From Deltaproteobacteria bacterium (GTDB taxonomy: Bacteria > Desulfobacterota > Deferrimicrobia > Deferrimicrobiales > Deferrimicrobiaceae), in contig JBLNEW010000027.1 of assembly GCA_050263095.1 (NCBI GenBank), positions 25,485 to 89,484 of the forward strand: 64,000 bases of DNA, written 5' to 3'. Numbering within the stretch: the stretch's first letter is position 1; each line of letters opens with the position of its first letter. The translations under genes and the position numbers were made by a program. The notes under the pieces are model-generated. The model did not search any database, was not told the origin of the DNA, and worked only from the letters and a program-made list of their open reading frames with translations. Positions 5,326 through 33,388 of the stretch are shown here, piece after piece.

Positions 5326-6114
5326 ATGAAGTTTTTAAAGAGTCTAGGTTACCTGCTCCTGCTCCTTTACCCGATTTCCGCGCCCTCCATGAGAATCACC
5401 CCTCCGCACGAATACGGCCGGGTGATACTTAACAACTTTTCAGGAAGTGCAGGCATCGCCCCTGTGGAATTCGACCACTGGCTTCACCGGGCCATGTTTA
5501 CCTGCCGGCTATGCCACGTAGACATCGGTTTCGCAATGGAAGGCGGAGCCACGAAAATAAAGGCGGCCACCAATCGGGACGGCTTTCACTGTGGCGCGTG
5601 CCATAACGGAAAAACCGCGTACAAGGGGAAAACGATCTTCCCTTCATGCGCGGATAATTCCGCCCGTGCGGGGTCAAGCCTTTGTGACATGTGTCATTCC
5701 GTGAAGGACAAAACCAACAGTAAAAAACAATTCGGCGAATTCATAGGGAAATTTCCCAAGAAAGGGCTTGGAAACACGGTTGACTGGGAAGAGGCGGAGG
5801 CGAAAGGATTTATCAGGCCGCTTGATTTCATGGAAGGCGTATCGATAAAGAGGTCACCTCTGAAAATGGAGAAAGAGATCTCCATAGAATCCAGGGTAAC
5901 CTGGATGTCGGATGTCATGTTCTCCCATAAAAAACACGCAGTGTGGAACGGCTGCGAAGTCTGTCACCCCGAGATCTTCCCCAGCACAAAACAGGGGACG
6001 CTGAAATACACAATGTTTCAAATAGTAAACGGTGAATATTGCGGCGTATGCCACGACAAGGTTGCGTTTCCCATCATCGAATGCCAGAGGTGCCATACCA
6101 AACCTGTTCGATGA
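5326..6114 (+). CDS. Periplasmic hexahaem c-type cytochrome, paralogue of 4173..4973
   Basis: Six CxxCH motifs (CRLCH, CGACH, CDMCH, CEVCH, CGVCH, CQRCH). Shares blocks such as FDHWLHRA.FTCRLCHVDIGFAM and CGVCH...AFP..CQRCHTKPV with the upstream gene. Confidence 0.85.
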   Translation: MKFLKSLGYLLLLLYPISAPSMRITPPHEYGRVILNNFSGSAGIAPVEFDHWLHRAMFTCRLCHVDIGFAMEGGATKIKAATNRDGFHCGACHNGKTAYKGKTIFPSCADNSARAGSSLCDMCHSVKDKTNSKKQFGEFIGKFPKKGLGNTVDWEEAEAKGFIRPLDFMEGVSIKRSPLKMEKEISIESRVTWMSDVMFSHKKHAVWNGCEVCHPEIFPSTKQGTLKYTMFQIVNGEYCGVCHDKVAFPIIECQRCHTKPVR

Positions 6115-9400: not shown

Positions 9401-9468
9401 TGCTGTTTCAATTCCTTCTTTCACACTGCGTCCTTCCAAGGGAAGCAGGTTTGGGCCTTAATAATTAA
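6463..9468 (+). CDS. Fused multi-transmembrane domain plus spermidine-synthase-like (PABS-fold) domain protein
   Basis: About 12 predicted transmembrane helices across two blocks. A PABS-like region (VIPMSLNPNAKITANIGLGTGLTTQT...VDTVEIE...YDIIISEPSNPWVSG...GLFVQW). 1001 aa. Moderate G+C. Confidence 0.6.
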   Translation: MKKKHENIFFLLFAVSGFSGLIYESIWTHYLKLFLGHAAYAQTLVLGIFMGGMALGSWLCAKYSIRWKNLIAAYGLAEAAIGLFAIFFHSIFVQAINYSYEDAIPRLESATTIILFKWILSALLITPQSVLLGMTFPLMSGGILRGSTQGPGKIIAMLYFTNSIGASIGVLASGFALIRFAGLPGTVMVAGFINLVLAAIILWMARNNSPFQQAHSVEIEKPGKPAMDGWIPGFLVVSLVTGSASFIYEIGWIRMLSLVLGSSTHAFELMLSAFILGLALGGFWIKGRLDRIADPARFLSYVQIFMGLFALSTLLVYEHTFVVMQWLMKVIDRSETGYFAFNLASHAIAISVMLPATFCAGMTLPIITFLMIRQGYGEKSIGAVYTANTIGAIAGVFFAIHFGMPLLGLKGLITLGAALDMALGLLLLWKASAYSGKRIPAAATAAIACVVMATAYFVKLDPYKMASGVYRYGSLLTAEDSKLIFHEDGKTATVSLSLRSDGIINVRTNGKSDGAINVDSKGQPEIDENTTVLLAVIPMSLNPNAKITANIGLGTGLTTQTLLSFDSITQVDTVEIETEMVKAAKLIGRRVEAVYTDPRSRIYIDDAKTFFSARKTKYDIIISEPSNPWVSGVAGLFSEEFYHLIKRNLADNGLFVQWLQLYEIDVNLIMSVLKAMSLHFSDFIAYAAHNGDMIIVAKENGVISGADSWIFRNQKVAEDLRRINIESMQDIDIRKIGNKKFLHKLVESSPIKANSDYYPILGQNAARARFLNADAYALHNLSHEPLPTMDMILGRTAPWETIVTPSVVLSKTQLAHNAMGIRDFFLCGRFDEKYRNVPEVIKKEAVLLKRQYNECDSGQSVPERISVLFNTAVAITPYLSPRELGYIWGIIERNSCASFITPVEKNWIYLFKAIGNRDAKAMVDGAKTLLRSGEIKEIIALKYVVASGMLGSLILEDKEEAFRFWSSYRPVLLMDGNPDLLFQFLLSHCVLPREAGLGLNN

Positions 9469-9506
9469 TAATTGGAAGTTATATCCAGCGCAAATGAGGC
9501 AGGACA

Positions 9507-12476
9507 ATGATCTCTAATCTGAAATCCTTATTATTCCTGGTTTCAATCTATGTCGCCTTTTTTGCATCAGGCGCAGGCTGTCTTATCGCGGAGGTTACAT
9601 GGAATCGGATGCTTATTGTGGTTGTCGGCAACTCGATGAGCGCGGTGTCGATGATCATCGTCGTTTTTATGGGCGGGCTTGGACTCGGAAGCTATGTTGG
9701 AGGAAAGATCTTTGGTCATAGACGTCCATCTCTCGTACCTTATCTTTTATTGGAGATAATCATCGGCATATATGTCCTTCTCTCGCCTACGCTTTTCGAA
9801 TTTCTTGCCTACTTTTTCACGTCATTCGCGGAGCGTTTAAACGACAGGTCCATTTTGACGATCATACGACTTATCGTAAGCTTTGGCGCGCTTATCTTGC
9901 CTGCATTCATGATGGGATTGACTTTCCCGGCAATGATCTCCGGGGCAACCCTGTATAAACCGTCGGAACGAACAGCACGTACAAGCTACCTCTATAGCGT
10001 AAACACTCTCGGCGCTGCCATAGGTTGCTACGCGGCGGGATACCACCTCTTATTTGAGTTTGGCGTCAAGACCACTTTGGTCATTGCATTCGGCGTTTAT
10101 CTGAGTGCGGTCCTGTGCGCACTTGTGGCCATCATTATGGCTAAATCTAAATCCGAAGAGGCTCCGGAAAATATTCCTTGCACCGCGGATCATTCTTTCG
10201 CAGATGTTCGCCTGCGACGCTTCTTGAATATCGCGACTCTCGGGATAGGTTTCGTTGCACTCGCATACGAAGTTCTTCTGACGAGGCTCAGTATTTTATA
10301 TTTGGGCAATACCGTATCGGTATTCCCGCTTGTTCTTACGGGCTTTCTTATTGGAACGGGCATAAGCGCCTTATTGGGCACCTGGCTTTATGACATCTTG
10401 CGGCGCACTTCAAGCAAAAGCAACAACCTGTTCGGCTTCACCGCCTTGGGGGCGGGTGTATTCGTATTGTTGACACCGTACCTTCTCTTGACTGATTGGG
10501 TATTTGGGGGGGTCAAGTATGCCCGTTTTGCGGATTCTCCTCCTGTAAATCCATTGCCTATTTTGGGAATCATCATCGCTCCTACGATTCTGATCGGCGC
10601 CCTGTTGCCTCTAGCGATTAGAACTCTCCAACCGCGCGAGTACGGTGACGCAACTAGAGAGGCATCCACCCTTTATGCGCTTAATACCGCGGGGGGCCTA
10701 TTGGGCGCAGGATTGGTAAACCATTACCTTGTCCCGCTTATAGGAATTCAAGGAGTCTTGATATGCCTGACTTCAATCTGCTTTGCCGTGGGCATCATCT
10801 ATCTTCTATCGCTCGGTGCAAGCTATTTGCGTTGGGCAATTGCATTCCTAAGTGTTTTGGCGATATCGGCAGGCTTGGCGGGGATCCTTCCCGGGATGAT
10901 ATATATGTATGCGGGAAAGATCGCGGAATCGACGCAAGCCCATTCCGCTGAAATTCGACTTGTACACGAGGGCCGGGCTGCAACCGTCACGGTAATAGAC
11001 CAGAAAGACCCTAAAAGGGGTACTTACCGCGACATGTACCTAAACGGCGTCGAGGAAGCTTCTACGCGTTATTGGCATACCCAGTTATTCAAACTTTTGG
11101 GAATACTTCCGGTATTGGCTCATGAGTCCCATCCCACAAAACCAAAAGAGGCATTGGTGATTGCATTCGGCGCCGGAATAACGGCAGGCTCCGTATTGGC
11201 TTCCAGTCAGGTCTCATCGCTTGATGTCGTAGATCTCAATCCGGATGTGGAAGGCATCAACAATTTGTTTATCGATGTAAACGGAGATGTTTTCCACAAT
11301 CCCCGTTTCCATTTCATCAACGACGACGGACGTAACTTCCTGGTCACAAGCAACAAGAAATATGACTTGATCATTGCCGACTCTACACATCCCAGAGCTT
11401 ACGATAGCTGGATACTCTACACCGAAGAATTTTACAGGTCTGTCCGAAAGCGTCTACTTGCCGGCGGCGTGTTTGCGCAGTGGGTGCCGGTGCTCGGCTC
11501 GATGCGCGGAGATCTGTTCAAGATACATCTGAATACGTTCCGACGAGTGTTCCCGAACTCGACTTTTTGGTATATCTACGGCTCCGATCAGGCGTTTCTT
11601 CTGGCTACCCCCCAGCCTTTCTCGCTGGATATCAGGGAATTGCAGAATAAGCTGAATCAGCTGCCCGAATGGTTTCGCGCAAAGGAGTACCAGATCGACA
11701 CTGCGCCTCGCATCGCCGGATTTTTTTGGTTGGATGATTCATCGATGAAGAGAATGATCGGCTCCGAAACGAGAGTAAATACCGACGATTCCCATTTCTT
11801 CGACAAGCAATCCGCCGTACAACCGGCTCAACCGCAATGGCAACTGCCATATTTCCAGACAAGTGTTCTGCCCTATCTTGGACAAGCAAACGAAAACATG
11901 CACGTCGACGTCCGTAGGGAGCAGATCGTTGCGCAGTTTTTGGCAAGGTACGCTTTTTTTCAAAGCAAATCCGATCTATATCATGCATATTGCACGATGC
12001 CGGGAAACGGAACTGTAAGTTATTTCATGAATCTGGAATTCGCCGGCGAATTTCCCGACCACGAGACATTCTGCCAGGATATCGAGATAAATTTTTATCG
12101 CATGGCACTCGAAAAACTTCCAAACGACGTCCTTACACTAAACAATCTTGCTTATAAGCTTTCAGAAAAAGGTCAACTTGAAGAGGCATTAATGCTGGCA
12201 GAGAAGGCGGTTGCAATCGAGCCCCAAAACGGTATTTTCCTCGATACCTACGGATGGATTCTTTTTAAACAGAAAAAATATGGTCCGGCTATCGATGCAC
12301 TTAAAAAATCAGCTTCGTTTTTGCCGAACCACCCTATAGTTCTTTTCCATTTAGGAGCAGCCTATAACGCCACGGGGAAGTATGATTCCGCAAGAGAACA
12401 TCTATCAAAAGCCTTGAGAATTTCAAGCGATTTCAAAGAAGCACAACAGGCACGTGAACTATTGGGGCAGCATTAA
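9507..12476 (+). CDS. Paralogous fused transmembrane plus spermidine-synthase-like domain protein with C-terminal TPR repeats
   Basis: Same architecture as 6463..9468 (ALVIAFGAGITAGSV...VDVVDLNPDV...YDLIIADSTHPRAYDSW...GVFAQWVP), plus C-terminal TPR-like repeats (NNLAYKLSEKGQLEEALMLAEKAVAIEP...). Confidence 0.6.
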   Translation: MISNLKSLLFLVSIYVAFFASGAGCLIAEVTWNRMLIVVVGNSMSAVSMIIVVFMGGLGLGSYVGGKIFGHRRPSLVPYLLLEIIIGIYVLLSPTLFEFLAYFFTSFAERLNDRSILTIIRLIVSFGALILPAFMMGLTFPAMISGATLYKPSERTARTSYLYSVNTLGAAIGCYAAGYHLLFEFGVKTTLVIAFGVYLSAVLCALVAIIMAKSKSEEAPENIPCTADHSFADVRLRRFLNIATLGIGFVALAYEVLLTRLSILYLGNTVSVFPLVLTGFLIGTGISALLGTWLYDILRRTSSKSNNLFGFTALGAGVFVLLTPYLLLTDWVFGGVKYARFADSPPVNPLPILGIIIAPTILIGALLPLAIRTLQPREYGDATREASTLYALNTAGGLLGAGLVNHYLVPLIGIQGVLICLTSICFAVGIIYLLSLGASYLRWAIAFLSVLAISAGLAGILPGMIYMYAGKIAESTQAHSAEIRLVHEGRAATVTVIDQKDPKRGTYRDMYLNGVEEASTRYWHTQLFKLLGILPVLAHESHPTKPKEALVIAFGAGITAGSVLASSQVSSLDVVDLNPDVEGINNLFIDVNGDVFHNPRFHFINDDGRNFLVTSNKKYDLIIADSTHPRAYDSWILYTEEFYRSVRKRLLAGGVFAQWVPVLGSMRGDLFKIHLNTFRRVFPNSTFWYIYGSDQAFLLATPQPFSLDIRELQNKLNQLPEWFRAKEYQIDTAPRIAGFFWLDDSSMKRMIGSETRVNTDDSHFFDKQSAVQPAQPQWQLPYFQTSVLPYLGQANENMHVDVRREQIVAQFLARYAFFQSKSDLYHAYCTMPGNGTVSYFMNLEFAGEFPDHETFCQDIEINFYRMALEKLPNDVLTLNNLAYKLSEKGQLEEALMLAEKAVAIEPQNGIFLDTYGWILFKQKKYGPAIDALKKSASFLPNHPIVLFHLGAAYNATGKYDSAREHLSKALRISSDFKEAQQARELLGQH

Positions 12477-12521
12477 TGAAGATGGCATAATTTTTTTATA
12501 ATTATTGGCTTTAATGCGTCA

Positions 12522-14579
12522 TTATTTATTCATCAATAGATTTAATTGTTTTATCGCACCAGAATGATTTGGAATCAATTTAACAACTATATTAAATTGA
12601 TTCAATGCTTCGTCATATCGACTCTGCAGTTTATATGTGATGCCCAAATTATAATGCGCTTCAGCGTATTTTGGATTTAACTTTATGGCATTTTCAAACT
12701 CTTTTATAGCATCATCATATTGAGCAAGTTCCGCATATGATTTACCAAGATTATTATATCCTTCAGGGTTATCAGGATCCAGCATCGTTACGGCCTTGAA
12801 TTCACTTTTCGCTTCTTCAAAACGGCCCGTTTCTCCGTAAACGATACCAAGGTCATTATGCGCCTCCGCATAATAAGGCATACCTTTTATTGCAAGTTTA
12901 AATTCTCTAATCGCATTTTCGTATTGTCCTTTCTCAATATAATATCTGCCTGCATCGTAATGGCCTTTGGCATATGCGGTTTGAATCTCGCGGGTACCTT
13001 CTTCAAATCGACCTGTTTTTATAAATGCAATCCCAAGGTTGTTATGTGCATCGTAATAATCAGGTTTTATCTCGATCGCTTTTTTATACGATCTTATGGC
13101 GTCCTCATAAAGCCCCTTTTTATAATAGGACATCCCAAGCATGTTATATGGGCGGGATTTAGAAGGACTTTTACTTACCACATCCTTCCACAATCCAACT
13201 TCATCTTGCCATAATGTATTCCGTGAATAAGTCATTACGGCAAAAATAACTATAATTGAAGTAAAAAATAACATTAGTTTATTTATATACGTATGACTAA
13301 TTATATTCGTATGTCTTATGCTCACGACGGCCGTGACGATTGCAATAAAGAACCCTATCGAAGGCAAATATATTCGATGCTCAAATATAACATCCCGTAT
13401 GGGAATGATGCTTGATTCAACAGAATTGGCAATATAAAACCAAAAAACACCAAAAGATATTAACAACGCATATCCATTCTGTTTATTTCGACCTCTAATT
13501 ACAAGGTATATCGCAATGCAGATAATCAACAAATGAAATAACAATGATGTAAATACTTGCACATCTATCAACGAACGGAAAATAGTGTAATCATAATCAA
13601 TGTTCTGCCATACGGGAATAAATAATAATCTTATATAGGTAATAACAACTCTAAATTGTGTAATTAAATAATCGAAACGGCTTATCTCCGTAGTTTCTTG
13701 TGCGGCCATTGAAACGGAGTTTATGAAATTACCACTTAAATAACCGGTTTGGATTAAGTTTATTGGTATTATTAGCATCGTAAGCGAAAATGGAGCGACG
13801 TATAGTAATCTTTTTTTGAAATCACCATTACAAAGTATAAATTCATATAAAGCAATTAACACCGGCAATGTAAACGATATCTCTTTCGTCATCATTGCTA
13901 GCGCAGCCGACATTATTGATAGTAGGTAATATATGACGGCCTTAGGAGTTGATCCAGATAGACGGAATTTTGCATACAAGACGAATGAAAGAACGTAAAA
14001 CGTCGTGGCAAGTGATGTAAACCGTTGAACGATATAAGTTACGGCCTGAGTTTGCACTGGATGAACAATGAAAAGCGCCGCGGCGAAAAACGATATTACA
14101 TTATATAATATACACGTATTAAGATGGTCTTCCCCAGTTGCATCCATAAAATATGTGGTCTTAAATGTTATTATAAGTAAATAATAGATTAGTAACGAAT
14201 TGATAACATGGATTACTAGATTAACAAAATGGTATCCGGCGACATCTAGGTCGTTAATATTATAGTTAACCGCAAATGTAATGTATCCAATAATCCTATT
14301 CCTGGAAATACCTTGATAGTCTTGAGAATTTGGAAAATCATGATGATCATGCTTCAGCTTCAATGGATCTAAAATAAATTTGGGATCTTTAATGACGGGA
14401 TTGCGGACGATTTGGGTTTCATCATCCAATATAAAAGGCACATTGAAAGTATTAGAATAAACGATAGCGCCTAATAATATAAGCACTATTGCCGGGATTA
14501 CCTTACAATTAAATGCCTTTAATAATGCATCCCGTATCGATTGCGAGGAGTACGTGAGAAACTCCATAATTAAATTCAT
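12522..14579 (-). CDS. Multi-transmembrane PMT/glycosyltransferase-39-like domain fused to C-terminal TPR repeats
   Basis: N-terminal half has about 10 transmembrane helices. The C-terminus carries more than 6 TPR units (YNMLGMSYYKKGLYEDAIRSYKKAIEIKPDYYDAHNNLG...). The gene is strikingly AT-rich: a 60-nt sample at 12541-12600 has only 14 G/C. Confidence 0.6.
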   Translation of the reverse strand: MNLIMEFLTYSSQSIRDALLKAFNCKVIPAIVLILLGAIVYSNTFNVPFILDDETQIVRNPVIKDPKFILDPLKLKHDHHDFPNSQDYQGISRNRIIGYITFAVNYNINDLDVAGYHFVNLVIHVINSLLIYYLLIITFKTTYFMDATGEDHLNTCILYNVISFFAAALFIVHPVQTQAVTYIVQRFTSLATTFYVLSFVLYAKFRLSGSTPKAVIYYLLSIMSAALAMMTKEISFTLPVLIALYEFILCNGDFKKRLLYVAPFSLTMLIIPINLIQTGYLSGNFINSVSMAAQETTEISRFDYLITQFRVVITYIRLLFIPVWQNIDYDYTIFRSLIDVQVFTSLLFHLLIICIAIYLVIRGRNKQNGYALLISFGVFWFYIANSVESSIIPIRDVIFEHRIYLPSIGFFIAIVTAVVSIRHTNIISHTYINKLMLFFTSIIVIFAVMTYSRNTLWQDEVGLWKDVVSKSPSKSRPYNMLGMSYYKKGLYEDAIRSYKKAIEIKPDYYDAHNNLGIAFIKTGRFEEGTREIQTAYAKGHYDAGRYYIEKGQYENAIREFKLAIKGMPYYAEAHNDLGIVYGETGRFEEAKSEFKAVTMLDPDNPEGYNNLGKSYAELAQYDDAIKEFENAIKLNPKYAEAHYNLGITYKLQSRYDEALNQFNIVVKLIPNHSGAIKQLNLLMNK

Positions 14580-14626: not shown

Positions 14627-15535
14627 CTACTGGGATGTAGAATATATTTGAATCCTGCTGTTTCCACGATCTGCGATGAATATGAATCCATTGTCATTTA
14701 CGCAAATTTGCGAAGGATAGTGCAGAAGCCCCTCTTTCCACCCCAAGTTCAATTGACGTCCCCTGAAGGAACCGTCGCGTCCCAAAATAACGATGCCGCT
14801 GCCGTTCTGATCAACTAAGAAAAGGTTTCCTCGATTGTCGGCTGCAATTGCAACGGGAAAATCTACATCTTCCTTCAGGCTTTCCGTGAGGGGTATTATT
14901 GAGGAAGAACCGGCGACTGACGTATAGACCCTCCTCCCGGTGCTATCGATAATGTAAAGATTGCCTGATGAATCTACCGTGAGATCGGAAAAGAATCCGT
15001 AATCTTCCGGAAAGGAGATCTCCCGTTGCACTTTGCCATCCGGCTGCAGAACTATCACTTTTTCAGACGATATGTCGAGGACGTATAAATTATCTTTTTT
15101 ATCTATGGTCATGCTTTTCGGCACGATGCCCCGCTGCGACGTTATAGTCGAAAAGTCGATATATCCCTTGAATTCTCCTCCAGAGGAAATTCTTCCGATT
15201 TTGCGATGTTTCCCATCAAGAACAAAAATATCCCCTATTGAATTCATCTGGACCCGTATGGGGTAAGGCAATTGAGGCAAGGAAATCTCGGAACCCGGAT
15301 TCAGGGTCTCCCCTGTGAAATTGAAACGTATAAGACGACCGTTACCAGTGTCAGCAACCACCAGAAGAGGCTTCTCGTTGCAGCTCACACCTTCCGGATG
15401 TTTCAGACCCGTTCCGCCCTCATCCGTATAACCGGATATCGCCGGCTTCAATTTCATCGTTTCCGCCGAAAACGAAGGAACCGGAGCAAAAAGGGCAATC
15501 AATGCGGGGGCGACATATTTTAAATATTTTCTCAC
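14627..15535 (-). CDS. Secreted NHL-repeat beta-propeller protein
   Basis: Six NHL-type repeats (LVVADTGNGRLIRF, IFVLDGKHRKIGRI, LYVLDISSEKVIVL, LYIIDSTGRRVY, LFLVDQNGSGIVIL, IFIADRGNSRIQIY). Signal peptide after a GTG at 15535, with GAGGTGA 4 nt upstream. An alternative ATG lies at 15559. Confidence 0.65.
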   Translation of the reverse strand: MRKYLKYVAPALIALFAPVPSFSAETMKLKPAISGYTDEGGTGLKHPEGVSCNEKPLLVVADTGNGRLIRFNFTGETLNPGSEISLPQLPYPIRVQMNSIGDIFVLDGKHRKIGRISSGGEFKGYIDFSTITSQRGIVPKSMTIDKKDNLYVLDISSEKVIVLQPDGKVQREISFPEDYGFFSDLTVDSSGNLYIIDSTGRRVYTSVAGSSSIIPLTESLKEDVDFPVAIAADNRGNLFLVDQNGSGIVILGRDGSFRGRQLNLGWKEGLLHYPSQICVNDNGFIFIADRGNSRIQIYSTSQ

Positions 15536-15539
15536 TTCA

Positions 15540-16811
15540 TCACCTCGTGAATTTGACATGGCACTGGACGCAAAGATCCATTTTAGGATCGAAATAAGCG
15601 AAAAGTTTCTTGTCGGTTCCATGCGACCGGTGGCAACTAAGGCAATCGAGGCTGAGATTGCGGTTACGCGGATCGACGATCTTCGCGCCGATCGGATGGG
15701 ACTTGTGTCTCTGCCAGTCATGGCAGGTTCCGCAAAGATCGATCGTCGATGCGTTATCCAACAAGAAAACATTATTCGAGGAATGCGGGGAGTGGCAACT
15801 CGAGCATTTCCCTTCCTCGACAGGTTTGTGTTTCGCAACCGACTTCTCTTGTCTAGCCATGGAATCCGCATGGCATGCCCCGCAAACCAATTTCACCTGC
15901 TCTTTCATAAGGCCATCCCATTTGGAGGAATGGGGATTATGACAGGTCAGACAACCCTCCTTACCCAGCAAAGGCCAGTGAACCCGGGTCTTTCCAAACG
16001 TATCGTTAAGCATGGAATTATGGCAGCCGCGGCATAATTCATATCCCGTCTTCCTGACTTTGAGCGCATTCGTCGAAGACGCTTCAAAGTGACATTGGTT
16101 GCACATCTTATTGGCAACGGGTCTATGGACATTCCCCCAGAAAAGCCCTCCCCTGTTGGAGCCGTGTGGATCATGGCAGGAGGTGCATCGCGACTTGGCC
16201 ACCGGATAGGCCTGATGCTGCCTAGCAAATGCGGGATTGGATGTCTTGTGACAATCGATACATAGGGATGGCACAGGATTTTTCAGCAGGAACGCGGAAC
16301 GTGTGGAAGCATGGGGATTGTGACAATTCAAGCAATCCGTCCCTACGGGGCCATGCTTGAACCTATATTTTTTAACGGCCTCGGATACTCCTTTATGGCA
16401 GCTGTAACACAGCTCGTTCCCCGAACTTCGCAAGTTAAACTTGTTATTGGATGCATGTGGGTCGTGGCAGGTCATGCAGTTTCCATCTGCTGCCGCCTGG
16501 TGGACACTTTGCGGCTTGGAAGGCAGTATGCCATCGTGACACGAAATACATATTTTATTTGCGCCAAGGGCTGTCAGTTTCCCGTGACCCGAGGTATGCG
16601 GATTGTGGCAGCTTGAACAGTCTCCCGACTTCACGGGGGAATGAACGAACGGCAGCTTCATTTTCTCGGCGAAATCCGTATGACAAGCGACGCAGATTTT
16701 CCCTTTCGCTCCCGGTTTCAATTTGAACTTATCCTGGGTATATGACGGGGATACCGACAGAATGGAAACGGGAACTAGAAACAGCAGGACAGCTTTCAGT
16801 CGCAAATTCAT
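15540..16811 (-). CDS. Multihaem c-type cytochrome with 16 CxxCH motifs
   Basis: Signal peptide MNLRLKAVLLFLVPVSILSV after an AGGAGA ribosome-binding site. 16 CxxCH motifs, many in the CxxCH(N/D)PH form typical of Geobacter-type polymerised c7/c3 domains. The start lies 10 nt after the stop of the upstream 26-haem gene. Confidence 0.85.
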   Translation of the reverse strand: MNLRLKAVLLFLVPVSILSVSPSYTQDKFKLKPGAKGKICVACHTDFAEKMKLPFVHSPVKSGDCSSCHNPHTSGHGKLTALGANKICISCHDGILPSKPQSVHQAAADGNCMTCHDPHASNNKFNLRSSGNELCYSCHKGVSEAVKKYRFKHGPVGTDCLNCHNPHASTRSAFLLKNPVPSLCIDCHKTSNPAFARQHQAYPVAKSRCTSCHDPHGSNRGGLFWGNVHRPVANKMCNQCHFEASSTNALKVRKTGYELCRGCHNSMLNDTFGKTRVHWPLLGKEGCLTCHNPHSSKWDGLMKEQVKLVCGACHADSMARQEKSVAKHKPVEEGKCSSCHSPHSSNNVFLLDNASTIDLCGTCHDWQRHKSHPIGAKIVDPRNRNLSLDCLSCHRSHGTDKKLFAYFDPKMDLCVQCHVKFTR

Positions 16812-16821
16812 GATTTCTCCT

Positions 16822-18801
16822 TTACTTCTTATCCACGATGTGACAATCCTCGCATGACCTTCCGGCAAACGGGGGGTGAACCTTGTTCTTGAAGAACTTC
16901 GGATCCTTCGAGGCATGCGGGTCATGACAGGATCGGCAATCCATTACCGCAGCATCGATGTATATATGTCCTTTTGCGAAGGACGCCGCATTTAGATCGT
17001 GGCATTCCCCGCACAATTTACCCGGAGGTTGGGAGAGCAAAGTCGTCTCGCTGGAGAAATGATGGGAATGACATCTCAGGCAATCCCGGGATGCGGGAGA
17101 GTGCGGCGTTTCCTTCTGGAGCTTCTCTTTTATGTCCTTATGGCATGCCAGGCACAGATCGGGACCTTGAACGAGGAGGAGTTTGCCTAATTTGGATTGG
17201 TGGGGATTGTGGCACTTCGTGCATTGTCCGGTCATAACCGGCGAGTGCGTGCTTTTACCGCTCTTCATTCCTGTGCCGAGTTCGGAATGACACTCGATGC
17301 AAATCTTCTCCTGCTTTCCCAGTATCATGCCAGGCAAGTTCGTCCCATGGGCATCGTGGCAGGTCAAGCATTCCCCCCCCTTGAAAGGCTCATGAGTTGA
17401 TCCACCGACTGACGATTTCGTCAGGTCTTCATGGCACTTCGAACATAGCGCCGCTCCAGCCAGACGGAGAAGCTTTTTCTCCTCCGAACCATGGGGATTG
17501 TGGCAGCCATCGCAATCCCCCTTAATTACCGGTTTATGAGAGTTGGTTTTTAAAAAACTCACTTCGGCGTCGGCGTGACACGCGTAACAAACCTTATCGA
17601 GACGATCCTTGACCAATGCATTGAAATTGGACCCGTGGGGATTGTGGCAAGCAGTGCATTTGTCCGAAATGAATGGCTGATGTCGGATTTTCGCCTTTTG
17701 TGCTGCCATCGTCTTGGGATGACATGTGAAGCATAACGTACTCCCTTTTTCCAGCAGGAGCCCCTTGTTCTTCGCGGCATGGGGGGCATGACAGGAAAGA
17801 CAGCCTTTCCCTCCGGTAACAGCGCCATGATTCCTGGCCACCGTTTCTCCCTTTTCCTTGTGGCACCCAAGGCACAGCGTTTTCCCCGGCTCCGCGAGAA
17901 GGGCAGGGTTTTCGGAAGAGTGGGGATTATGGCAGGATAGGCAATCCCCCTCCTTGTACGGGATATGTAAAAATTCTCCTCCGGCATTCAGCTTGCGATC
18001 ATCGTGACATTGATAACATAGAGCGCTTCCTTTCTCATTCACGCCGAACGGAGTTTTCGAGCCGGGCTTTGCATGGCAGGAGTCGCAGTTTCCCTCTACG
18101 ACGGGGCTATGGGCACTCGATTTCAGCAGCCTTGGCTGGCCTGATGAATGTGGATTGTGACAACCTGAGCAATTCGATTTTTCTACAGGGTAATTTCCAT
18201 GAGCCTTATTGAAGTTTGACTTGCCGGGGCCGTGACATGAAAGGCAAAGCGGAGTTGCAGCCTTTGTCAGCAGATTATCTTGGTCGGAACTGTGCGCAAG
18301 GTGACAGGCCTTGCATCCCTCCTTAATCATGATTTCATGGTTTATCTTGTCCTTGAACGATTCTTTCTTGTGACACTGGAAGCACATCTCCGCGCCTTCC
18401 GCCTTCAGCATGTGCTTTTCCTCGGAGGCATGCGGATTATGGCATTGCGTGCACTTGCCGGTTTTCATGGCTGAATGCACCTTGGACTTGTTCATGCCTA
18501 TTTTCCCCCGGTCATGACAAGACAAGCAAAGATCGTTTCCCTGTTTTTTCAGCAGGTTACTGGGAACAAGCCCGTGACGGAGATGACATTCCTCGCATTT
18601 CCCTTCCTTGACGTTCGGATGGATCGCCTTCATGGGAAAATATTTTGCGGAAAACTTTTTATGGCAGTCCAGGCACCCTTTTTTCTGGAAAGTTCTCACC
18701 TGCGCCCACGAAGGGACGTCGTACACAAGAAATGTTCCTCCGGAAACCAGAGCGAGTGTTACGACAACGAATAAAATTCTCCTGGATCCGCATGAAAGCA
18801 T
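16822..18801 (-). CDS. Multihaem c-type cytochrome with 26 CxxCH motifs
   Basis: 659 aa with a signal peptide. 26 CxxCH motifs, roughly one per 25 residues (CLDCH, CEECH, CLSCH, CTQCH ... CRSCH, CEDCH). Confidence 0.85.
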   Translation of the reverse strand: MLSCGSRRILFVVVTLALVSGGTFLVYDVPSWAQVRTFQKKGCLDCHKKFSAKYFPMKAIHPNVKEGKCEECHLRHGLVPSNLLKKQGNDLCLSCHDRGKIGMNKSKVHSAMKTGKCTQCHNPHASEEKHMLKAEGAEMCFQCHKKESFKDKINHEIMIKEGCKACHLAHSSDQDNLLTKAATPLCLSCHGPGKSNFNKAHGNYPVEKSNCSGCHNPHSSGQPRLLKSSAHSPVVEGNCDSCHAKPGSKTPFGVNEKGSALCYQCHDDRKLNAGGEFLHIPYKEGDCLSCHNPHSSENPALLAEPGKTLCLGCHKEKGETVARNHGAVTGGKGCLSCHAPHAAKNKGLLLEKGSTLCFTCHPKTMAAQKAKIRHQPFISDKCTACHNPHGSNFNALVKDRLDKVCYACHADAEVSFLKTNSHKPVIKGDCDGCHNPHGSEEKKLLRLAGAALCSKCHEDLTKSSVGGSTHEPFKGGECLTCHDAHGTNLPGMILGKQEKICIECHSELGTGMKSGKSTHSPVMTGQCTKCHNPHQSKLGKLLLVQGPDLCLACHKDIKEKLQKETPHSPASRDCLRCHSHHFSSETTLLSQPPGKLCGECHDLNAASFAKGHIYIDAAVMDCRSCHDPHASKDPKFFKNKVHPPFAGRSCEDCHIVDKK

Positions 18802-18829: not shown

Positions 18830-20524
18830 TTATTTCACGAAATTTGAGATTATATCCTGTATTTGGGTATCGCCGGCAAGCACCTTGATCTCCGATGCCG
18901 CTCGCAGTTTTGCCGCATACTCTTCAATTGCGATTTGAAGGTTTTTATTAAACAATTTGCTTTTGATGTCCCCTTCCACCGAATTGAAAGGCTTCGGCCT
19001 GGAGGGGGTGACATCACGAATATAGAAAACATATATATGCCCTTCGGGACTCGTATAAATCCGAAAATCTCCAGGATTTGCCCCCGATACTGCTTTTCGT
19101 ACGTCATTCGGAATTTCGTCAAGCGGTAAAGCTTCTTCATCAAATTTCAGGAGATTTACCGCAATATCCTTTGATACTTGCCCGGAAGCATTCTCCATTA
19201 TCCAGAGGAAATCGGCTCCTTTCCTGAGCTTTTCGACAGCATCCAAGGCATATTCCTTATTTACGAAAACCAGGCTCTTAATTTTTAGAGATCCCGGAAG
19301 CGTATAATCCGCGATGTGCTCTGCGAAATAATTCTTTACTTCCTCATCTTCGACTTTAATCCCTGGAACAATAACATTTCTGATGAATGTACCAAACAGG
19401 ATGCTTCTCCTGTATTCTTCAACCTTATATTTGTATATTTTCATCCGATCAATTTTAAGTCGTTTCGCTTCCATTTCATAAACCGTTTTCATTACGATTT
19501 CATCGAGAACTTCCGCTTTTCTCCTGTTCACTTTCTTTTTTTCGCTTGCCCGTTCAACCCCGTGGAAAAATTTCTTTTGCAAGCTCTCAGAAAGACTTGA
19601 GACTGTTACCTGCTTGCCTCCCTTGATCCTGGCAATGATCCGGTTATCTCGCATAAGCGTCCCGTAATCCGGCTCAGGCACATCATAATCCAAGCCATCG
19701 AGGAGTTTCCTGTCCAGCTTCACATATTTTTTCTTCAATGCTTCCGAGTACGCCTTTAATGCGCGCAGTTTTTTTGCCTTTAAAGCTTCCTCGCGTGCAA
19801 GGGCAAGCGCATCGCTGTTTTCTGGAAAGCGGACATCCTCCAACATGCTTATGGAAAACCCGTTTCCGATTTTTACGATAGAGGTAATCGCGCCTATTTC
19901 AATCATGGATATTGCTTTTGCGACTTCCGGGAGCAGATCTTTATGTTTAATATACACTCCTTCTTGCCCGCCCTTGGCTTTCCCTTCACTGGCCAATTTC
20001 TTCGACAGAGACTCGAAATTCCCTCCTGATTTAATATCATCCTGGAATTTTCTTGCATCTTCCTCTGTGTTAATGAGAACGGAGGACAATTTCACTTCCT
20101 TGATCGATTCCCGATATAGTTTCCCGACCTCTTTTTTGTCCGGAGTTTTTATGCCCCTTATATGGTATGAATACAGCATCTGTCTGAGCGTAGAATTTTG
20201 ATACGTCGCAATATCTTTTATTACTTCATCGAGTTGGTCCAAACCGATGTTTTTCGATTCTTGAATGAACAATTCCATATTAATAAGCCGGTCGAGAAGT
20301 TCCGACTGGGTTTTCCGTACCGTTGTTTCTTCCTCGGACACGCCTTCATGCAGGGAAACAAGCGCTTTTTCGAATGCTTCGCGCGTTATCGGTACACCGT
20401 TCACGGTGGCAAGCGCAACATTACCGCCTCTCCCCCGCCCCTTGGCAGAACTCGTGAATCCCGTAGCGAAAAAAACAAATAACAATCCAAGCGCAATCGA
20501 TGCCGATAGAGTAGATTTCCTCAT
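18830..20524 (-). CDS. Periplasmic SurA/PrsA-like peptidyl-prolyl cis-trans isomerase (parvulin domain) chaperone
   Basis: Signal peptide. A long SurA-N-like helical region followed by a parvulin-type domain (...GGQEGVYIKHKDLLPEVAKAISMIEIGAITSIVKIGNGFSI...). Lower G+C than its neighbours. Confidence 0.65.
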   Translation of the reverse strand: MRKSTLSASIALGLLFVFFATGFTSSAKGRGRGGNVALATVNGVPITREAFEKALVSLHEGVSEEETTVRKTQSELLDRLINMELFIQESKNIGLDQLDEVIKDIATYQNSTLRQMLYSYHIRGIKTPDKKEVGKLYRESIKEVKLSSVLINTEEDARKFQDDIKSGGNFESLSKKLASEGKAKGGQEGVYIKHKDLLPEVAKAISMIEIGAITSIVKIGNGFSISMLEDVRFPENSDALALAREEALKAKKLRALKAYSEALKKKYVKLDRKLLDGLDYDVPEPDYGTLMRDNRIIARIKGGKQVTVSSLSESLQKKFFHGVERASEKKKVNRRKAEVLDEIVMKTVYEMEAKRLKIDRMKIYKYKVEEYRRSILFGTFIRNVIVPGIKVEDEEVKNYFAEHIADYTLPGSLKIKSLVFVNKEYALDAVEKLRKGADFLWIMENASGQVSKDIAVNLLKFDEEALPLDEIPNDVRKAVSGANPGDFRIYTSPEGHIYVFYIRDVTPSRPKPFNSVEGDIKSKLFNKNLQIAIEEYAAKLRAASEIKVLAGDTQIQDIISNFVK

Positions 20525-20611: not shown

Positions 20612-23600
20612 TCAGTCGCTGTCGGCTGATCCCAGCGCCCGTTCGATTACCTTATCGGTCATTTCCGCAGCGAGGGCATGGGATGTAGAAACTTTTCCCC
20701 AATCGAATAGAAACATGCAGTCGCTCCCGGTATTATAACTGGTGGAAGACCACGCCACCTTTTTTTTATTCGTGTCGATCGCCTGGCTTGAAAAATTCAC
20801 TAGCGGAAAGCCTGCCGGACCGATCGAATCCTGATAATCCCTCACGCTTCCGTAAAAAACCAGATCGGCATCCATCTCTTCACGCAGCAAGGCCGCCTGT
20901 GGAAGGGATAGTCCTCCCTCAAGGATCATCCGAGAACGCAATATGGCCATCCGAACTTCACCCGGATCGATCACGACAAGATCCCCTCTTTCTGCAAGAT
21001 GTTTCAAAAAATGCAGACGCATGATCTCACCGGCGTTTTTACGGGAACTATCGTTGAAAAAGGGAAGGACCGCGACCGATAGCGTTTTTCCGGTGCCTAG
21101 CGCAAAGTCCTTATTGCGAAAGAACTCCTTCGGATGGAATCGTTCACTTCTGCCGACACCGGAGCTGCGTCCAGTATTTTTTTTGATTCCACCAGTCTCT
21201 CCTGATAAAAGATGGCCGCTCATGGAATCTAGTATTTTGTTTACGACCCTGTCTCGGAGTATCCGTGAATCTCTTTCAAGACCTATGCCCAAGATTCCGG
21301 GAGCATCGTTTCCTGCCACGACGATGCTGTCCATCCAGATAATGGAGGCTTTCCTTCCGGTAGAGATAAGTCTGGATGTCAGGGCTACTCTTGGTGGGTA
21401 GTCTTCCGAAAATAAATCGATCGATATGGCAAGGACCGCGGCCGCGCCGGTTTCCTGTCTCAAGGCCTGCCCTGTATCCTTCGAAAGACCGGCGGCATAA
21501 CGGATCCGATGCCGTGTCATGAACTTTTCAAGGATTACTTCATCGACCACCTTGATCCCGTTCCTTTTCATTCGAGTTATAACGGATTGATTGATCTCTT
21601 TTACAGGAGCGGCGACACCGCTAAGGTTCTCAATCGGGAACACGGCGATCAACGAATCCAACCCGAGTTCTCTTGTAATTTCAAATCCCGAAGACCAGCC
21701 GCTGTCCGCGGTATTTCCAAGGGCGTCACGCAGTACCACCTTGACCCGATAGAAACCGGGTTGCTCGGGTCTCCATTCCAACACCGGCGACGGCCCTTTC
21801 TGCACGATGATCTCTTTGTTCCTTCTAGAAACATGGAACTCGTAGACGTACGCGCCGATGCCTCCGGAAGCGACTGCGGTCCACCGGATGACTGCGGATA
21901 CCGCTCTTTGTGGAAACGACACGTCAGGAACGAGGTTTATTACAGCGGGAGGCAACACAACCGCGTACGGCGGCGACCAACCGCTGCTTGCGATATTGCC
22001 CAGGGCATCACGCACAATCACATTTACCCGGTAACTGCCAGGCTCCCGAGGCGCCCATTCCAAGCTTGACGAAGGCCCTTCCTGCAATATTCTTTCTTCT
22101 TTCCCGTCGGATACCCGGAACTCGTATCTTTTTTCACCTACCCCCCCCGATGTCTTTGCAGTCCAACGGATGGTTGTTGTTCCGGCGGCTTGAGGGGGTT
22201 GCCTGTCGGGTGCCAGTAAATCGACTTTCAGTTGAGGCATCACCATGTATTCCGGAGACCATCCTCCATCCAGCCTGTTCCCGAGGGCATCCGTCGCGAT
22301 AACTTTTACTCGGTGTAGTCCCTCTTTCATCGGCGTCCACGCCAATACGGGCGAAGAACCCTTCTGCTCGCTTACCTCTTCCGTTCCATCAAAGCTTCGA
22401 AATTCATATAATCGGCTGCCGGCACCGCCCGACACGTCGGCCTTCCAATTAATCGTTGTGGTAACCGCAGTCTGAGGGGAGGGCTTGTCCGGATTAAATG
22501 ATTTCAGCAAAAGCGGCGGGGCAACTTCGTATTCCGGAGACCAACTACTATCCGCGACATTGCCGTGTAAATCCTTGACAGACACCTTCACACGGTAGAT
22601 GCCGGCATCTTGAGGTACCCATATCCATGTGGGCGACTCTCCCTTCTGCATTAATACGACCTCGTTATCCTTATGGAGATAGAAGGCGTAAGTCCGGGCG
22701 CCCATCCCTCCGTCGACGACCGAGATCCAGCGTATCTTGGCTGCATTCGCAACTTGTGGCGATGCCTTGTCTGATCCAAGAGAAGAAACCGAGAGTGGAG
22801 GAATAAATGTATATTCCCGGGACCATCCGCTATCCGCGGTATTGCCATGCGAATCGCGAATTATGACTTTTATACGACAGGTTCCGGCCACCGACGGTAT
22901 CCAATCCAAGGCCGGTGACGGCCCTTTCTTTCTGAAAACTTCCTTGCCGTTCCGTGTAATATGGAACTCGTATTCGAGCGTCCCGATTCCGCCAGAAGCT
23001 GCCGCAACCCACCTGAACGGATTCGAAGCTACCGCCGGAGACATATTATCTGATCGTAACGACTCAATAAACAACGGTGGAACAACTTCGAAAGGCGTTG
23101 ACCAGCCGCTGTCGGCCATGTTACCGGCTGAATCCCGTACTACAACCATCACACGATAGCTTCCGGCCTTTTTAGGCAACCAGCGCCATTCGTGTAACGG
23201 GCCCCTCTGTTCCAGCGTCTCTTCGACCGCATTTAAAATGCGAAATTCATAAGTCAACGCGCCAATACCGCCGGATGCAACAGCGGACCATCGAATCTGT
23301 GACGAAACCGCAGCCTGCGGAGAATTTCTGTCCGGCTTCAATGACACTATTTCAACCTTGGGGGCCACTTCAAACTCCGATAACCAGCCGCTGTCTACGG
23401 TATTTCCCAGCGCATCCCGAACGATCACTTTCAACCTATACGTTCCGGCATCCATTGGAATCCAGTCCCATGCCGGCGAAGGCCCCTTTTGAACCATAGT
23501 CTGCTTGTCGCCTGCCATGGTATGGAACTCATATGTGAATGGGCCTACCCCACCCTCTGCAGACGCCGTCCATCTGATTTTTGAGGAGGATGCCGCCTGT

Positions 23601-24034
23601 GGTGGAGCCTTGTCGGGTTTCATCGTTTTCAATCTTAGCGCCGGGAAAATTTCATATCCCGGCATCCAGCCGCTGTCTGCGATATTGCCCAGTGCATCCC
23701 GCACAACCGCCTTCACGCGATAAGTACCCGCATGCAAGGGTCTCCAGCCCCAGATATTGGAACTATCCTGCTGCTCTACAGACTCTTCGGTCCCCTTAAG
23801 GGTATGGAATGCAAATGTATATGGCGCTTCCCCTCCTGATGCCGAGGCCGACCAAAGGATTGTCGTCATCGTTGCCGCTTGCGGAGACACCTTGTCCGGC
23901 GAATGCAGTTTCACCGCCAGAACGGATGGGATTTCCCGCGAAGGCAGTTGTGTTGCCCGCGAGGAGGCGCAACCGCACAAAACAACGGTGGCTATCAGTA
24001 GGCAGAGATAACTATTTGCCGAATAGTTTATCAA
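20612..24034 (-). CDS. Giant lipoprotein: eight tandem Y_Y_Y-like (Ig-like) repeats plus two C-terminal LpoB/CsgG/DUF799-like domains
   Basis: Lipobox-like LCGCASS. Eight repeats of about 95 aa, each with ...PQAA..IRW.A.ASGG.G.YEF.....E...QKGPSP.W.W.P...G.YR.KV.VRDALGN.ADSGWS..FEV.P. The C-terminus has two copies of a (L/I)AV(F/L)PF.N.S...(40-60 aa)...VVI.PGEV... module also seen in the next gene. Confidence 0.7.
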   Translation of the reverse strand: MINYSANSYLCLLIATVVLCGCASSRATQLPSREIPSVLAVKLHSPDKVSPQAATMTTILWSASASGGEAPYTFAFHTLKGTEESVEQQDSSNIWGWRPLHAGTYRVKAVVRDALGNIADSGWMPGYEIFPALRLKTMKPDKAPPQAASSSKIRWTASAEGGVGPFTYEFHTMAGDKQTMVQKGPSPAWDWIPMDAGTYRLKVIVRDALGNTVDSGWLSEFEVAPKVEIVSLKPDRNSPQAAVSSQIRWSAVASGGIGALTYEFRILNAVEETLEQRGPLHEWRWLPKKAGSYRVMVVVRDSAGNMADSGWSTPFEVVPPLFIESLRSDNMSPAVASNPFRWVAAASGGIGTLEYEFHITRNGKEVFRKKGPSPALDWIPSVAGTCRIKVIIRDSHGNTADSGWSREYTFIPPLSVSSLGSDKASPQVANAAKIRWISVVDGGMGARTYAFYLHKDNEVVLMQKGESPTWIWVPQDAGIYRVKVSVKDLHGNVADSSWSPEYEVAPPLLLKSFNPDKPSPQTAVTTTINWKADVSGGAGSRLYEFRSFDGTEEVSEQKGSSPVLAWTPMKEGLHRVKVIATDALGNRLDGGWSPEYMVMPQLKVDLLAPDRQPPQAAGTTTIRWTAKTSGGVGEKRYEFRVSDGKEERILQEGPSSSLEWAPREPGSYRVNVIVRDALGNIASSGWSPPYAVVLPPAVINLVPDVSFPQRAVSAVIRWTAVASGGIGAYVYEFHVSRRNKEIIVQKGPSPVLEWRPEQPGFYRVKVVLRDALGNTADSGWSSGFEITRELGLDSLIAVFPIENLSGVAAPVKEINQSVITRMKRNGIKVVDEVILEKFMTRHRIRYAAGLSKDTGQALRQETGAAAVLAISIDLFSEDYPPRVALTSRLISTGRKASIIWMDSIVVAGNDAPGILGIGLERDSRILRDRVVNKILDSMSGHLLSGETGGIKKNTGRSSGVGRSERFHPKEFFRNKDFALGTGKTLSVAVLPFFNDSSRKNAGEIMRLHFLKHLAERGDLVVIDPGEVRMAILRSRMILEGGLSLPQAALLREEMDADLVFYGSVRDYQDSIGPAGFPLVNFSSQAIDTNKKKVAWSSTSYNTGSDCMFLFDWGKVSTSHALAAEMTDKVIERALGSADSD
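21634..23899 (-). repeat. Intragenic tandem repeats (8 units of about 285 nt) encoding the Y_Y_Y-like domains
   Basis: Recurrent protein blocks VRDALGN(I/T)(A/V)DSGW and YEFH at regular spacing on the minus strand. Coordinates are approximate. Confidence 0.6.
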
Positions 24035-24587
24035 GAAGATCGTTGACCGCCTTTTCAGTAACGATGTTCATCGGCTCGCCGCCTCCACCGAACAGACGGT
24101 CTGCTGTGGAGACTCCGCCTTTGGTGGAAGAACCAGACCACACAATCCTTCCAGTGCGGCCTTCGATCATCTGAAGGCTGACGGAGACTATATTGGCCAC
24201 GCTCGTTCCAGAACGAACCTCTCCGTATTCCCGCACAGTTCCTGTAACCACAGCGTCTGCCTTTACGATCGTCGCTAACTTCAGTATTTCTTCGGTTGTC
24301 GGCGCTGCCGGAGCAGTAATTCCTGCCCTTGATATCCCGCGCCCCACTTCTCCGGGGGGTATAACGTAGACTCCCTGGGTAGCGAGAAGCATAGTGATGA
24401 AAACATCTCTAACACGGTCAGCGGCGGATGTTTCCCTCGAAAGGTTGGCGAAAGGCATTACGGCCACGTTCTGCACAAGCCCAAAATCCATGTTCGGGTC
24501 CCGGAAGGATCCCTGAGTCGTGCCAAGGGTGGAAGCGCATCCGACTGAAACCACTATAAAGACGAGGATGATTCCGATTTTTTTCAT
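24012..24587 (-). CDS. Small lipoprotein with an LpoB/CsgG/DUF799-like domain
   Basis: MKKIGIILVFIVVSVGCAS lipobox. NVAVMPFANLSRETSAADRVRDVFITMLLATQGVYVIPPGEV...AVVTGTV matches the two C-terminal modules of the giant lipoprotein. The listed ORF start at 24620 is an upstream extension. Confidence 0.6.
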   Translation of the reverse strand: MKKIGIILVFIVVSVGCASTLGTTQGSFRDPNMDFGLVQNVAVMPFANLSRETSAADRVRDVFITMLLATQGVYVIPPGEVGRGISRAGITAPAAPTTEEILKLATIVKADAVVTGTVREYGEVRSGTSVANIVSVSLQMIEGRTGRIVWSGSSTKGGVSTADRLFGGGGEPMNIVTEKAVNDLLDKLFGK

Positions 24588-28375: not shown

Positions 28376-28412
28376 AATAAAAAGGGGCCGGCGTACAAGG
28401 CCGGCCCCTTTG
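28376..28412 (-). terminator. Rho-independent terminator downstream of the OmcS-like gene
   Basis: Perfect 9-bp GC stem GGGGCCGGC / GCCGGCCCC (28384-28392 / 28400-28408) with loop GTACAAG. On the minus strand it is followed by a T-run (rc of TAAAAAGG). Confidence 0.7.

Positions 28413-31996: not shown

Positions 31997-33384
<1,388 letters not shown>

Positions 33385-33388
<4 letters not shown>

Follow-up and report, generated by a model that had tools for sequence, protein, structure and literature searches.

It is still debated by what path electrons leave the inner membrane and reach cytochrome nanowires; small diffusing Ppc cytochromes and fixed conduits are among the candidates. This question is raised by two adjacent genes for extremely haem-rich cytochromes in a 64,000-nucleotide (nt) stretch of DNA, here called the window, from a Deltaproteobacteria bacterium of the Deferrimicrobiaceae (assembly GCA_050263095.1, contig JBLNEW010000027.1, positions 25,485 to 89,484). 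What are these two proteins, one with 26 haem motifs (hereafter A) and the other with 16 (hereafter B), and what could they do together? Sequence comparison identifies them as a split form of a 42-haem protein that other phyla make as a single chain. They lie at the tail of an OmcS gene cluster of the kind described in Geobacter sulfurreducens; their role there would most likely be that of an extended haem wire in the periplasm, in the service of the OmcS filaments.

The two genes and the spacer between them are as follows (aa, amino acids).

16822 to 18801, minus strand: A, 26-haem cytochrome, probably of OscI type, 659 aa, with a signal peptide and 13 Paired_CXXCH_1 units
16812 to 16821, minus strand: spacer from the TAA stop of A to the ATG of B, 10 nt, AGGAGAAATC, read directly
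15540 to 16811, minus strand: B, 16-haem cytochrome, probably of OscJ type, 423 aa, with its own signal peptide and 8 Paired_CXXCH_1 units

Direct reading bears out what an earlier note on this DNA had claimed about the architecture of the pair: 26 CxxCH motifs in the 659 aa of A (which also contains 53 cysteines and 54 histidines), 16 in the 423 aa of B, and a 10-nt gap whose AGGAGA is the ribosome-binding site for B. The placement it gave, behind a peptidyl-prolyl isomerase (PPIase) and ahead of an NHL propeller, stands as well. The PPIase gene stops 28 nt short of A, the NHL gene begins 4 nt after B, and no terminator-like site was found from the propeller gene in the OscD position (listed below) through the NHL gene. 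An independent gene caller applied to the source contig returned the same genes, including a 302-aa NHL protein. The longest open reading frame (ORF) of B is 461 aa and begins farther upstream, within A; its start was taken as the ATG after the spacer. That A and B might be joined in the window through read-through or a frameshift was ruled out, since B lies in a different reading frame from A and has its own conserved signal peptide. The two proteins are paralogues with 32% identity, and neither contains the variant haem motifs CxxxCH, CxxxxCH or CxxCK. One description did not hold: the motifs had been said to be mostly CxxCH(N/D)PH, a form that accounts for only 12 of the 42 motifs in A and B (the looser CxxCHxxH accounts for 19). 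Because the repeat is a two-haem unit of ~47 aa, this signature can fall on every second motif at most.

Arrays of this kind invite the suspicion that they were collapsed or made chimeric during assembly, a possibility that the earlier note itself had raised. The general risk that repeats pose in metagenome assemblies is all that could be cited for such an artefact, for which we found no specific support and which we regard as refuted, with a negligible residual probability. The internal DNA repeats are diverged, being no longer than 40 nt, 60-75% identical and spaced at multiples of ~141-147 nt, and Tandem Repeats Finder detected nothing. An identical 659-aa protein is present in three separate assemblies, namely ERZ27292721 (whose ENA metagenome contig k141_251777 corresponds to the window), ERZ27292723 and Logan SRR7777797. 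Furthermore, orthologues in 15 other genomes have kept the lengths, the haem counts and the motif spacing.

The relationship of A and B to each other becomes apparent from the best 120 database matches of A. Sixty-six of these 120 matches are single chains of ~1065 aa with exactly 42 CxxCH motifs, and 35 have 26 motifs. The motif-spacing vector of the 42-haem chains is collinear with that of A followed by B, motif for motif, irregular values included: steps 8 and 25 in A are both 28, step 8 in B is 28 or 30, and B closes with 30 then 24. The step that crosses the junction measures 20-24 aa in 61 of the 66 chains. This collinearity is the reason why we regard the pair as a split 42-haem protein. 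In five fused loci examined with tblastn, the best A segment makes up the first two-thirds of the gene and the best B segment the abutting last third (in locus L048, for example, 10139-12046 and 12044-13207), with identities of 31-36% (A) and 32-37% (B). The C-terminal tail of A (..HPPFAGRSCEDCHIVDKK) and the N-terminus of mature B (..FKLKPGAKGKIC) together rebuild the linker of the fused chains (..HAPFINRDCTSCHVAPKPGA..KGRALC), at the same 24-residue spacing. An AlphaFold2 model of one fused protein (predicted local distance difference test, pLDDT, 81.7; predicted template-modelling score, pTM, 0.60) is ordered in the blocks around the junction (residues 641-710, pLDDT 75-91).

The fused chains are common in metagenome-assembled genomes (MAGs) of Zixibacteria, the FCB group, Gemmatimonadota and Krumholzibacteria and occur in others, where their only annotation is 'cytochrome c3 family protein'; when the literature was searched for '42 haem' cytochromes, no description of them came up, only noise. 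They differ from A and B in being one ~1065-aa polypeptide with one signal peptide, in the lipobox that some of them have, and in that an adjacent PPIase is usually absent. As Rosetta-stone evidence, the fused chains suggest that A and B most likely act as one unit. Since each corresponds to one half of a 42-haem polypeptide, haem 26 at the C-terminal end of A most likely abuts haem 27 at the N-terminal end of B.

What kind of haem chain is this? The pair had been described as strings of c7/c3-like domains, and domain parsing against c7-polymer cytochromes had been proposed as a check; this parsing points elsewhere. Paired_CXXCH_1 (PF09699/TIGR01905), a ~41-aa domain with two CxxCH motifs, covers A in 13 stretches (Pfam E=1.7e-148) and B in 8 (E=4e-86), scoring 482.5 and 282.9 bits, respectively, against a cutoff of 20.6. 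Cytochrome_C7 reaches 102 bits where Paired_CXXCH_1 reaches 482, the c3 models likewise score far lower, and the c7-polymer model TIGR04257 matches neither protein. The consensus repeat, LCxxCH-x12-13-HxPxxxGxCxxCHxPH, is a two-haem unit of ~47 aa, and there are no tandem trihaem c7 domains. In the PDB profile search, the matches at E<=0.01 include no c7/GSU1996 chain save one 'c7-like' chain at 2.4e-4. The Pfam and NCBIfam scores, the silence of TIGR04257 and the PDB profile ranking together rule out a c7/c3 polymer.

Both proteins instead exceed the cutoff (192.2 bits) of TIGR03508, the DmsE/MtrA decahaem family, with 295.4 bits over 5 stretches for A and 219.5 bits over 3 stretches for B, even though the ten haems in ~300 aa typical of that family are replaced by 26 in 659 aa and 16 in 423 aa. 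MtrA ranks first in the sequence search (E=1.8e-20) and in the PDB profile search (E=4.8e-31), with the next match 19 orders weaker. It is also the sole significant PDB fold match of the AlphaFold2 model of A (pLDDT 88.2, pTM 0.69), as chain 6R2Q_A, with E=5e-9 and a target-normalised TM score of 0.63. This chain is labelled 'Cystathionine beta-synthase' in the sequence file, which is a mislabel; the title of the entry is 'Structure of the Mtr complex'. As in MtrA, DmsE and PioA, the chains of A and B are built from Paired_CXXCH_1 blocks, predicted to be bis-His ligated and to form an elongated, peptide-minimised haem rod. They differ from these decahaem cytochromes in haem number (26 and 16 versus 10), in having neither an MtrB/PioB-family porin nor an MtrC-type partner nearby (the sole porin candidate, a 741-aa protein, matches no such family), and in being tied to an OmcS filament cluster and not to a porin-cytochrome operon. 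The Geobacter c7 polymers GSU1996, GSU0592 and GSU2210 resemble A and B as long periplasmic chains of low-spin haems made of small repeats, for which wire or capacitor roles have been proposed; their unit is a trihaem c7 domain of ~70 aa as opposed to the two-haem unit of 47 aa.

Across orthologues, 24 histidines of A and 17 of B outside the haem motifs are invariant, and the only invariant methionine apart from the start codon of A is M236 of B. Essentially every haem would therefore be bis-His ligated, which points to electron carriage, not catalysis. On these sequences and models, A and B are dense all-bis-His haem chains, MtrA-like rods of two-haem units. Mature A is calculated at 68.0 kDa without haem and ~84 kDa with haem (24 aa per haem), mature B at 44 and 54 kDa, and the chains overall hold one haem per ~24-25 aa. 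A, B, their orthologues and the fused forms all begin with what look like ordinary cleavable Sec-type signals, and A and B have neither a lipobox nor an anchor. A membrane anchor or Tat signal at the N-terminus of A, where 'SRRILF' precedes a 20-residue helix, was considered and ruled out, because the orthologues and fused forms have AxA-type Sec signals.

The earlier note had overlooked the context of the pair, which is the tail of an OmcS (osc-type) cluster. The other members in the window, from its head, are listed here.

28460 to 29710, minus strand: hexahaem OmcS homologue at the head of the cluster, 416 aa, 6 CxxCH
28381 to 28411, minus strand: strong terminator-like hairpin, 12 pairs (9 GC) plus a T run, 49 nt past the stop of the OmcS-like gene
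26878 to 28278, minus strand: YVTN-type beta-propeller lipoprotein in the OscD position, 466 aa (TIGR02276 E=1.1e-37; YNCE/Lactonase propeller families)
24647 to 26872, minus strand: 741-aa ORF in the OscE position, 717 aa as called, with a signal-like N-terminus and the C-terminus ...LHLAF
24012 to 24587, minus strand: GNA1162/LpoB-like lipoprotein in the OscF position, 191 aa as called
20612 to 24034, minus strand: lipoprotein in the OscG position, GNA1162-like in its C-terminal ~340-440 aa, start uncertain
18830 to 20524, minus strand: PPIase in the OscH position, a SurA/PpiD-like periplasmic parvulin, 564 aa (Pfam SurA_N_2/3, Rotamase_2, Rotamase)
14627 to 15535, minus strand: NHL-repeat beta-propeller with a signal peptide, 302 aa, GTG start at 15535 (Pfam NHL E=1.3e-18)
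29943 to 30977, minus strand: second NHL-like beta-propeller, 344-aa ORF, start uncertain

This arrangement is widely shared. A genome scan with A returned 43 loci, of which 15 hold full-length relatives at 47-61% identity, in Geobacteraceae (including the isolate Geomobilimonas luticola), Syntrophales, Nitrospiria, Desulfurivibrio and Acidobacteriota, among others. When all window proteins were searched against these loci with tblastn, the order OmcS-like protein, propeller, 741-aa protein, lipoprotein, lipoprotein, PPIase, A, B, NHL was found in 11 of the 11 loci with enough upstream DNA, that of Geomobilimonas luticola included; these 11 cover Geobacteraceae, Syntrophales, Desulfurivibrio and others. 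The PPIase lies directly 5' of A in every orthologous locus that extends that far, and the NHL gene directly follows B in 13 of the 14 that reach past B. The haem counts are equally stable, with 26 CxxCH in 13 of 14 full-length orthologues of A (47-61% identity) and 16 in all 15 orthologues of B. The lone orthologue of A with 25 motifs is in a groundwater Deltaproteobacteria MAG (L012, 4305-6299). Geobacteraceae orthologues share the synteny and are 52-57% identical to A and 48-55% to B.

Much of this neighbourhood also accompanies the single-chain form, which often has small multihaem cytochromes, GNA1162/LpoB-like lipoproteins and an NHL propeller as neighbours. In four of the five loci with the fused gene all of these are present, along with a family-less protein of 550-724 aa (resembling the 741-aa protein in two). 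The NHL propeller lies directly downstream of the fused gene in three (L048, L049 and L051), and a PPIase directly upstream in one (L048). A conserved protein of ~155 aa precedes the fused gene in L047, L048 and L051.

The pair and its neighbourhood have in fact been described and named before, and the window is an environmental, non-Geobacter example with the full cluster. In the osc (omcS-companion) operon of G. sulfurreducens, GSU2495 is oscI and GSU2494 is oscJ, both predicted to be periplasmic by the PSORT-type predictions cited there (PMC13194489). The same source, citing Shen et al. 2025 (Cell Chem Biol 32:239), gives proposed roles in OmcS nanowire folding for OscH, in secretion for OscE/F/G and in morphology for OscD. 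GSU2495 has 26 haem motifs and an orthologue in G. bemidjiensis (PMC2996986), has a mass of ~70 kDa (bioRxiv 2025.11.06.686851) and lies in the omcS region (PMC3495685). GSU2494 is also named PccJ, and PMC9248073 (citing Aklujkar 2013) reports that its gene is induced on Fe(III) oxide. The locus-tag and letter series (C=2501, I=2495, J=2494) puts D at the propeller and H at the PPIase, as in the window. An OmcS homologue heads both clusters, followed by a beta-propeller (OscD), three channel-type proteins (OscE/F/G) and the PPIase (OscH); the pair comes next, predicted to be periplasmic, ahead of one or more NHL genes. The first protein of the pair has 26 haems in both, and mature apo-A, at 68.0 kDa, is close in mass to GSU2495.

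Because gene order, haem count, size and letter series fit the published operon, we name A and B OscI- and OscJ-type (GSU2495/GSU2494-type) cytochromes. With the Geobacteraceae orthologues as a further basis next to position, haem count and size, we consider this identity probable, at moderate confidence. G. sulfurreducens was not among the 43 loci of the scan with A, nor among the best 120 matches of the OscF-like lipoprotein or of the Geobacteraceae OscH profile; a protein search with A was dominated by repeat words and missed even the orthologue with 61% identity. The window differs from G. sulfurreducens in several respects. Its host is an uncultured, high-GC organism, to which 'Deltaproteobacteria bacterium' and Candidatus Deferrimicrobium MAGs are the closest named relatives, and whose A and B are only about half identical to the Geobacteraceae orthologues. 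The window has one OmcS paralogue, in contrast to the omcS, omcT and oscC of G. sulfurreducens; its OscG-like protein has about nine extra Ig-like repeats; and its second NHL gene has moved upstream of omcS.

What could a 42-haem chain do in this setting? A and B would each be exported by Sec, loaded with haem in the periplasm and folded into an MtrA-like rod, and the two rods could then dock end to end to form one continuous 42-haem chain. MtrA carries 10 haems over ~8 nm. Scaled from MtrA, the chain would measure ~30 nm, roughly the width of the periplasm. It could serve as a periplasmic wire or buffer that takes electrons from the inner-membrane side to an OscE/F/G-like outer-membrane complex and from there to an OmcS-type filament. 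The NHL propeller, as the most consistently linked gene, might encode a docking partner. The PPIase would be the general chaperone of the cluster, in the OscH position, and not private to A and B. Dense bis-His chains, Sec signals and tight linkage make a periplasmic wire or capacitor role reasonable, so this part of what had been suggested for the 42 haems can be kept; that they span the periplasm is a prediction. The moderate confidence expressed above covers the explanation as a whole, that is, the OscI/OscJ-type identity together with an end-to-end 42-haem periplasmic wire or buffer.

Several points weigh against this explanation. The location, haem loading and partners of A and B are predictions for this organism, and their link to GSU2495 and GSU2494 comes from position, haem count, size and Geobacteraceae orthologues, not from direct alignment. 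One fused locus, L047 in Zixibacteria, has none of the companion genes. In G. sulfurreducens, a GSU2494 (pccJ) mutant is reported to be wild-type-like on Fe(III) oxide (PMC9248073, citing Aklujkar 2013), and oscJ is frameshifted in the long-evolved, highly electrogenic KN400 line (PMC13194489). Moreover, PpcA-E are reported to charge OmcS directly and, together with it, to suffice for long-range electron transfer (PMC10954620); given this reported sufficiency, the wire would be at best redundant in laboratory conditions. The 42-haem chain is thus probably redundant or only conditionally useful. Transcript levels of gsu2495 drop alongside those of omcS when Pd(II) is being reduced, and they go up in a gsu1771 mutant.

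It is also conceivable, if rather unlikely, that A and B form one obligate 42-haem wire, a molecular ruler of fixed length that spans the periplasm and, with the NHL propeller and the OscE/F/G-like proteins, makes up a trans-envelope conduit into the base of an OmcS-type filament. If this were true, the nanowire 'secretion/assembly' machine would double as an electrical socket, and a single-chain socket would serve other small cytochromes in Zixibacteria, Gemmatimonadota and other phyla.

Other explanations give the same proteins a different place in the envelope. A porin-cytochrome conduit, in which the 741-aa OscE-like protein would enclose B or the A-B chain in the way that MtrB encloses MtrA, with the rod feeding the base of an OmcS-type filament, would make OscE/F/G a conduit besides, or instead of, a secretion pore. 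The likeness of A and B to MtrA in sequence and fold, above the DmsE-family cutoff, argues for it. So does the company of the giant cytochrome, since a family-less protein of 550-740 aa and GNA1162/LpoB-like lipoproteins co-occur with it in the split loci and in four of the five distant fused loci, including those whose small cytochromes resemble OmcS only weakly; and the 741-aa protein combines its signal-like N-terminus with the C-terminal ...LHLAF typical of outer-membrane proteins. However, that protein matches no MtrB/PioB or other family in Pfam, NCBIfam or the PDB, by profile included, and its barrel is putative; 42 haems far exceed the length for crossing the outer membrane; the role published for OscE/F/G is OmcS secretion (PMC13194489); and mutant data point to dispensability (PMC9248073). 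We therefore hold this conduit to be doubtful. A periplasmic capacitor, in which A and B float free as soluble stores, each pair holding 42 electrons, and buffer respiration through gaps in acceptor supply without a fixed partner or direction, appears equally doubtful. Very high haem density, uniform bis-His ligation and signal peptides of the soluble type would suit such a store, and a deletion without phenotype (PMC9248073) fits buffering. A pure store, though, needs neither exactly 42 haems nor a conserved split point nor an NHL gene kept downstream across phyla, and the strict synteny with OmcS/OscD-H genes points to a specific partner.

The model of the earlier note, a folding and trafficking route dedicated to the pair, would have the SurA-like PPIase work for A and B, which would then be moved as cargo to the outer membrane or out of the cell, perhaps through the OscE/F/G-like proteins, and would not be partners of OmcS. 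The position of the PPIase directly upstream in every split-form locus that extends that far, and in one fused locus, speaks for this model, and a need for a prolyl isomerase is plausible in long, repetitive chains rich in proline (xPH). Yet the PPIase occupies the position of OscH, which is proposed to act in folding the OmcS nanowire (PMC13194489), no PPIase lies beside the fused gene in four of five loci, and GSU2495 and GSU2494 are predicted to stay in the periplasm (PSORT-type predictions, PMC13194489). A route reserved for A and B is accordingly quite improbable, and we return to the periplasmic wire or buffer for the OmcS system as the preferred explanation.

The remaining genes of the cluster add detail to this picture. 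The 416-aa hexahaem protein aligns over its full length with PDB 6EF8 (E=2.4e-95, residues 26-416 against 1-407) and by this match is likely the nanowire subunit. Because the hairpin and its T run lie directly behind this gene, the OmcS-like subunit is probably transcribed far above the downstream genes; those genes, A and B among them, would need read-through or an internal promoter. The OscD-position propeller is conserved after the OmcS gene in related loci, and the OscF-position lipoprotein is the most conserved protein of the cluster (46-64% identity across loci). The OscG-position lipoprotein carries its ~100-aa Ig-like repeats (Y_Y_Y/PKD/Big) N-terminally; its orthologues are without them and share only the C-terminal GNA1162-like part. 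The 741-aa protein, a putative outer-membrane channel, belongs to no Pfam, NCBIfam or PDB profile family, and its best PDB-profile matches have E ~1 (CBM32, Ttg2D). In other genomes, a homologue of the second NHL-like propeller sits downstream of the first NHL gene.

At the head of the cluster, a sigma-54-like -24/-12 element (TGGCATGTCCATTGCA, 30951-30966, minus strand) lies close to an adjoining pair of genes for a sigma-54 activator and a histidine kinase (31997-34839, minus strand). Matches to the sigma-54 promoter pattern across the window number 17 versus 21 expected by chance, which is not significant. The fused-form locus L049 also has a kinase and a sigma-54 activator directly upstream.

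The c7-polymer type does exist in the window, in genes other than A and B. Two hexahaem proteins (4173-4973 and 5326-6114, plus strand) each consist of two c7-type trihaem domains by match to TIGR04257 ('nanowire_3heme', E ~1e-29), and in L001, L004 and L006 homologues of them are found close to the cluster. Between these genes and the NHL gene lie two fused membrane/spermidine-synthase-like proteins of ~1000 aa (6463-9468 and 9507-12476, plus strand), one with TPR repeats, and a 685-aa TPR membrane protein of 36% GC (12522-14579, minus strand), which starts 47 nt past the NHL gene on the same strand. Homologues of these membrane proteins are found behind the NHL gene in L001, L009, L010-L012 and L028, and the genes from 6463 to 14579 may belong to the A/B system. 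The GC content is 36-55% from ~4000 to 31000, across the cytochrome/osc region, and 60-66% in the flanks. This suggests that the region is a horizontally acquired island, which would fit reports of frequent gain and loss of omcS-like genes.

Collectively, the conservation of 26 + 16 = 42 haems and the existence of single-chain relatives are a useful addition to what is known of this system, the category of which is unchanged. OscI/OscJ-type giants are conserved beside OmcS genes, and no stated function was found for them in the literature examined. A protein of the Paired_CXXCH type with 42 haems, or a pair with 26 and 16, followed by an NHL propeller offers a candidate genomic marker. That a conserved pair adds up to a chain which many phyla encode as one protein leads to a testable hypothesis for its biology, namely that the two cytochromes dock end to end into a wire of fixed length.

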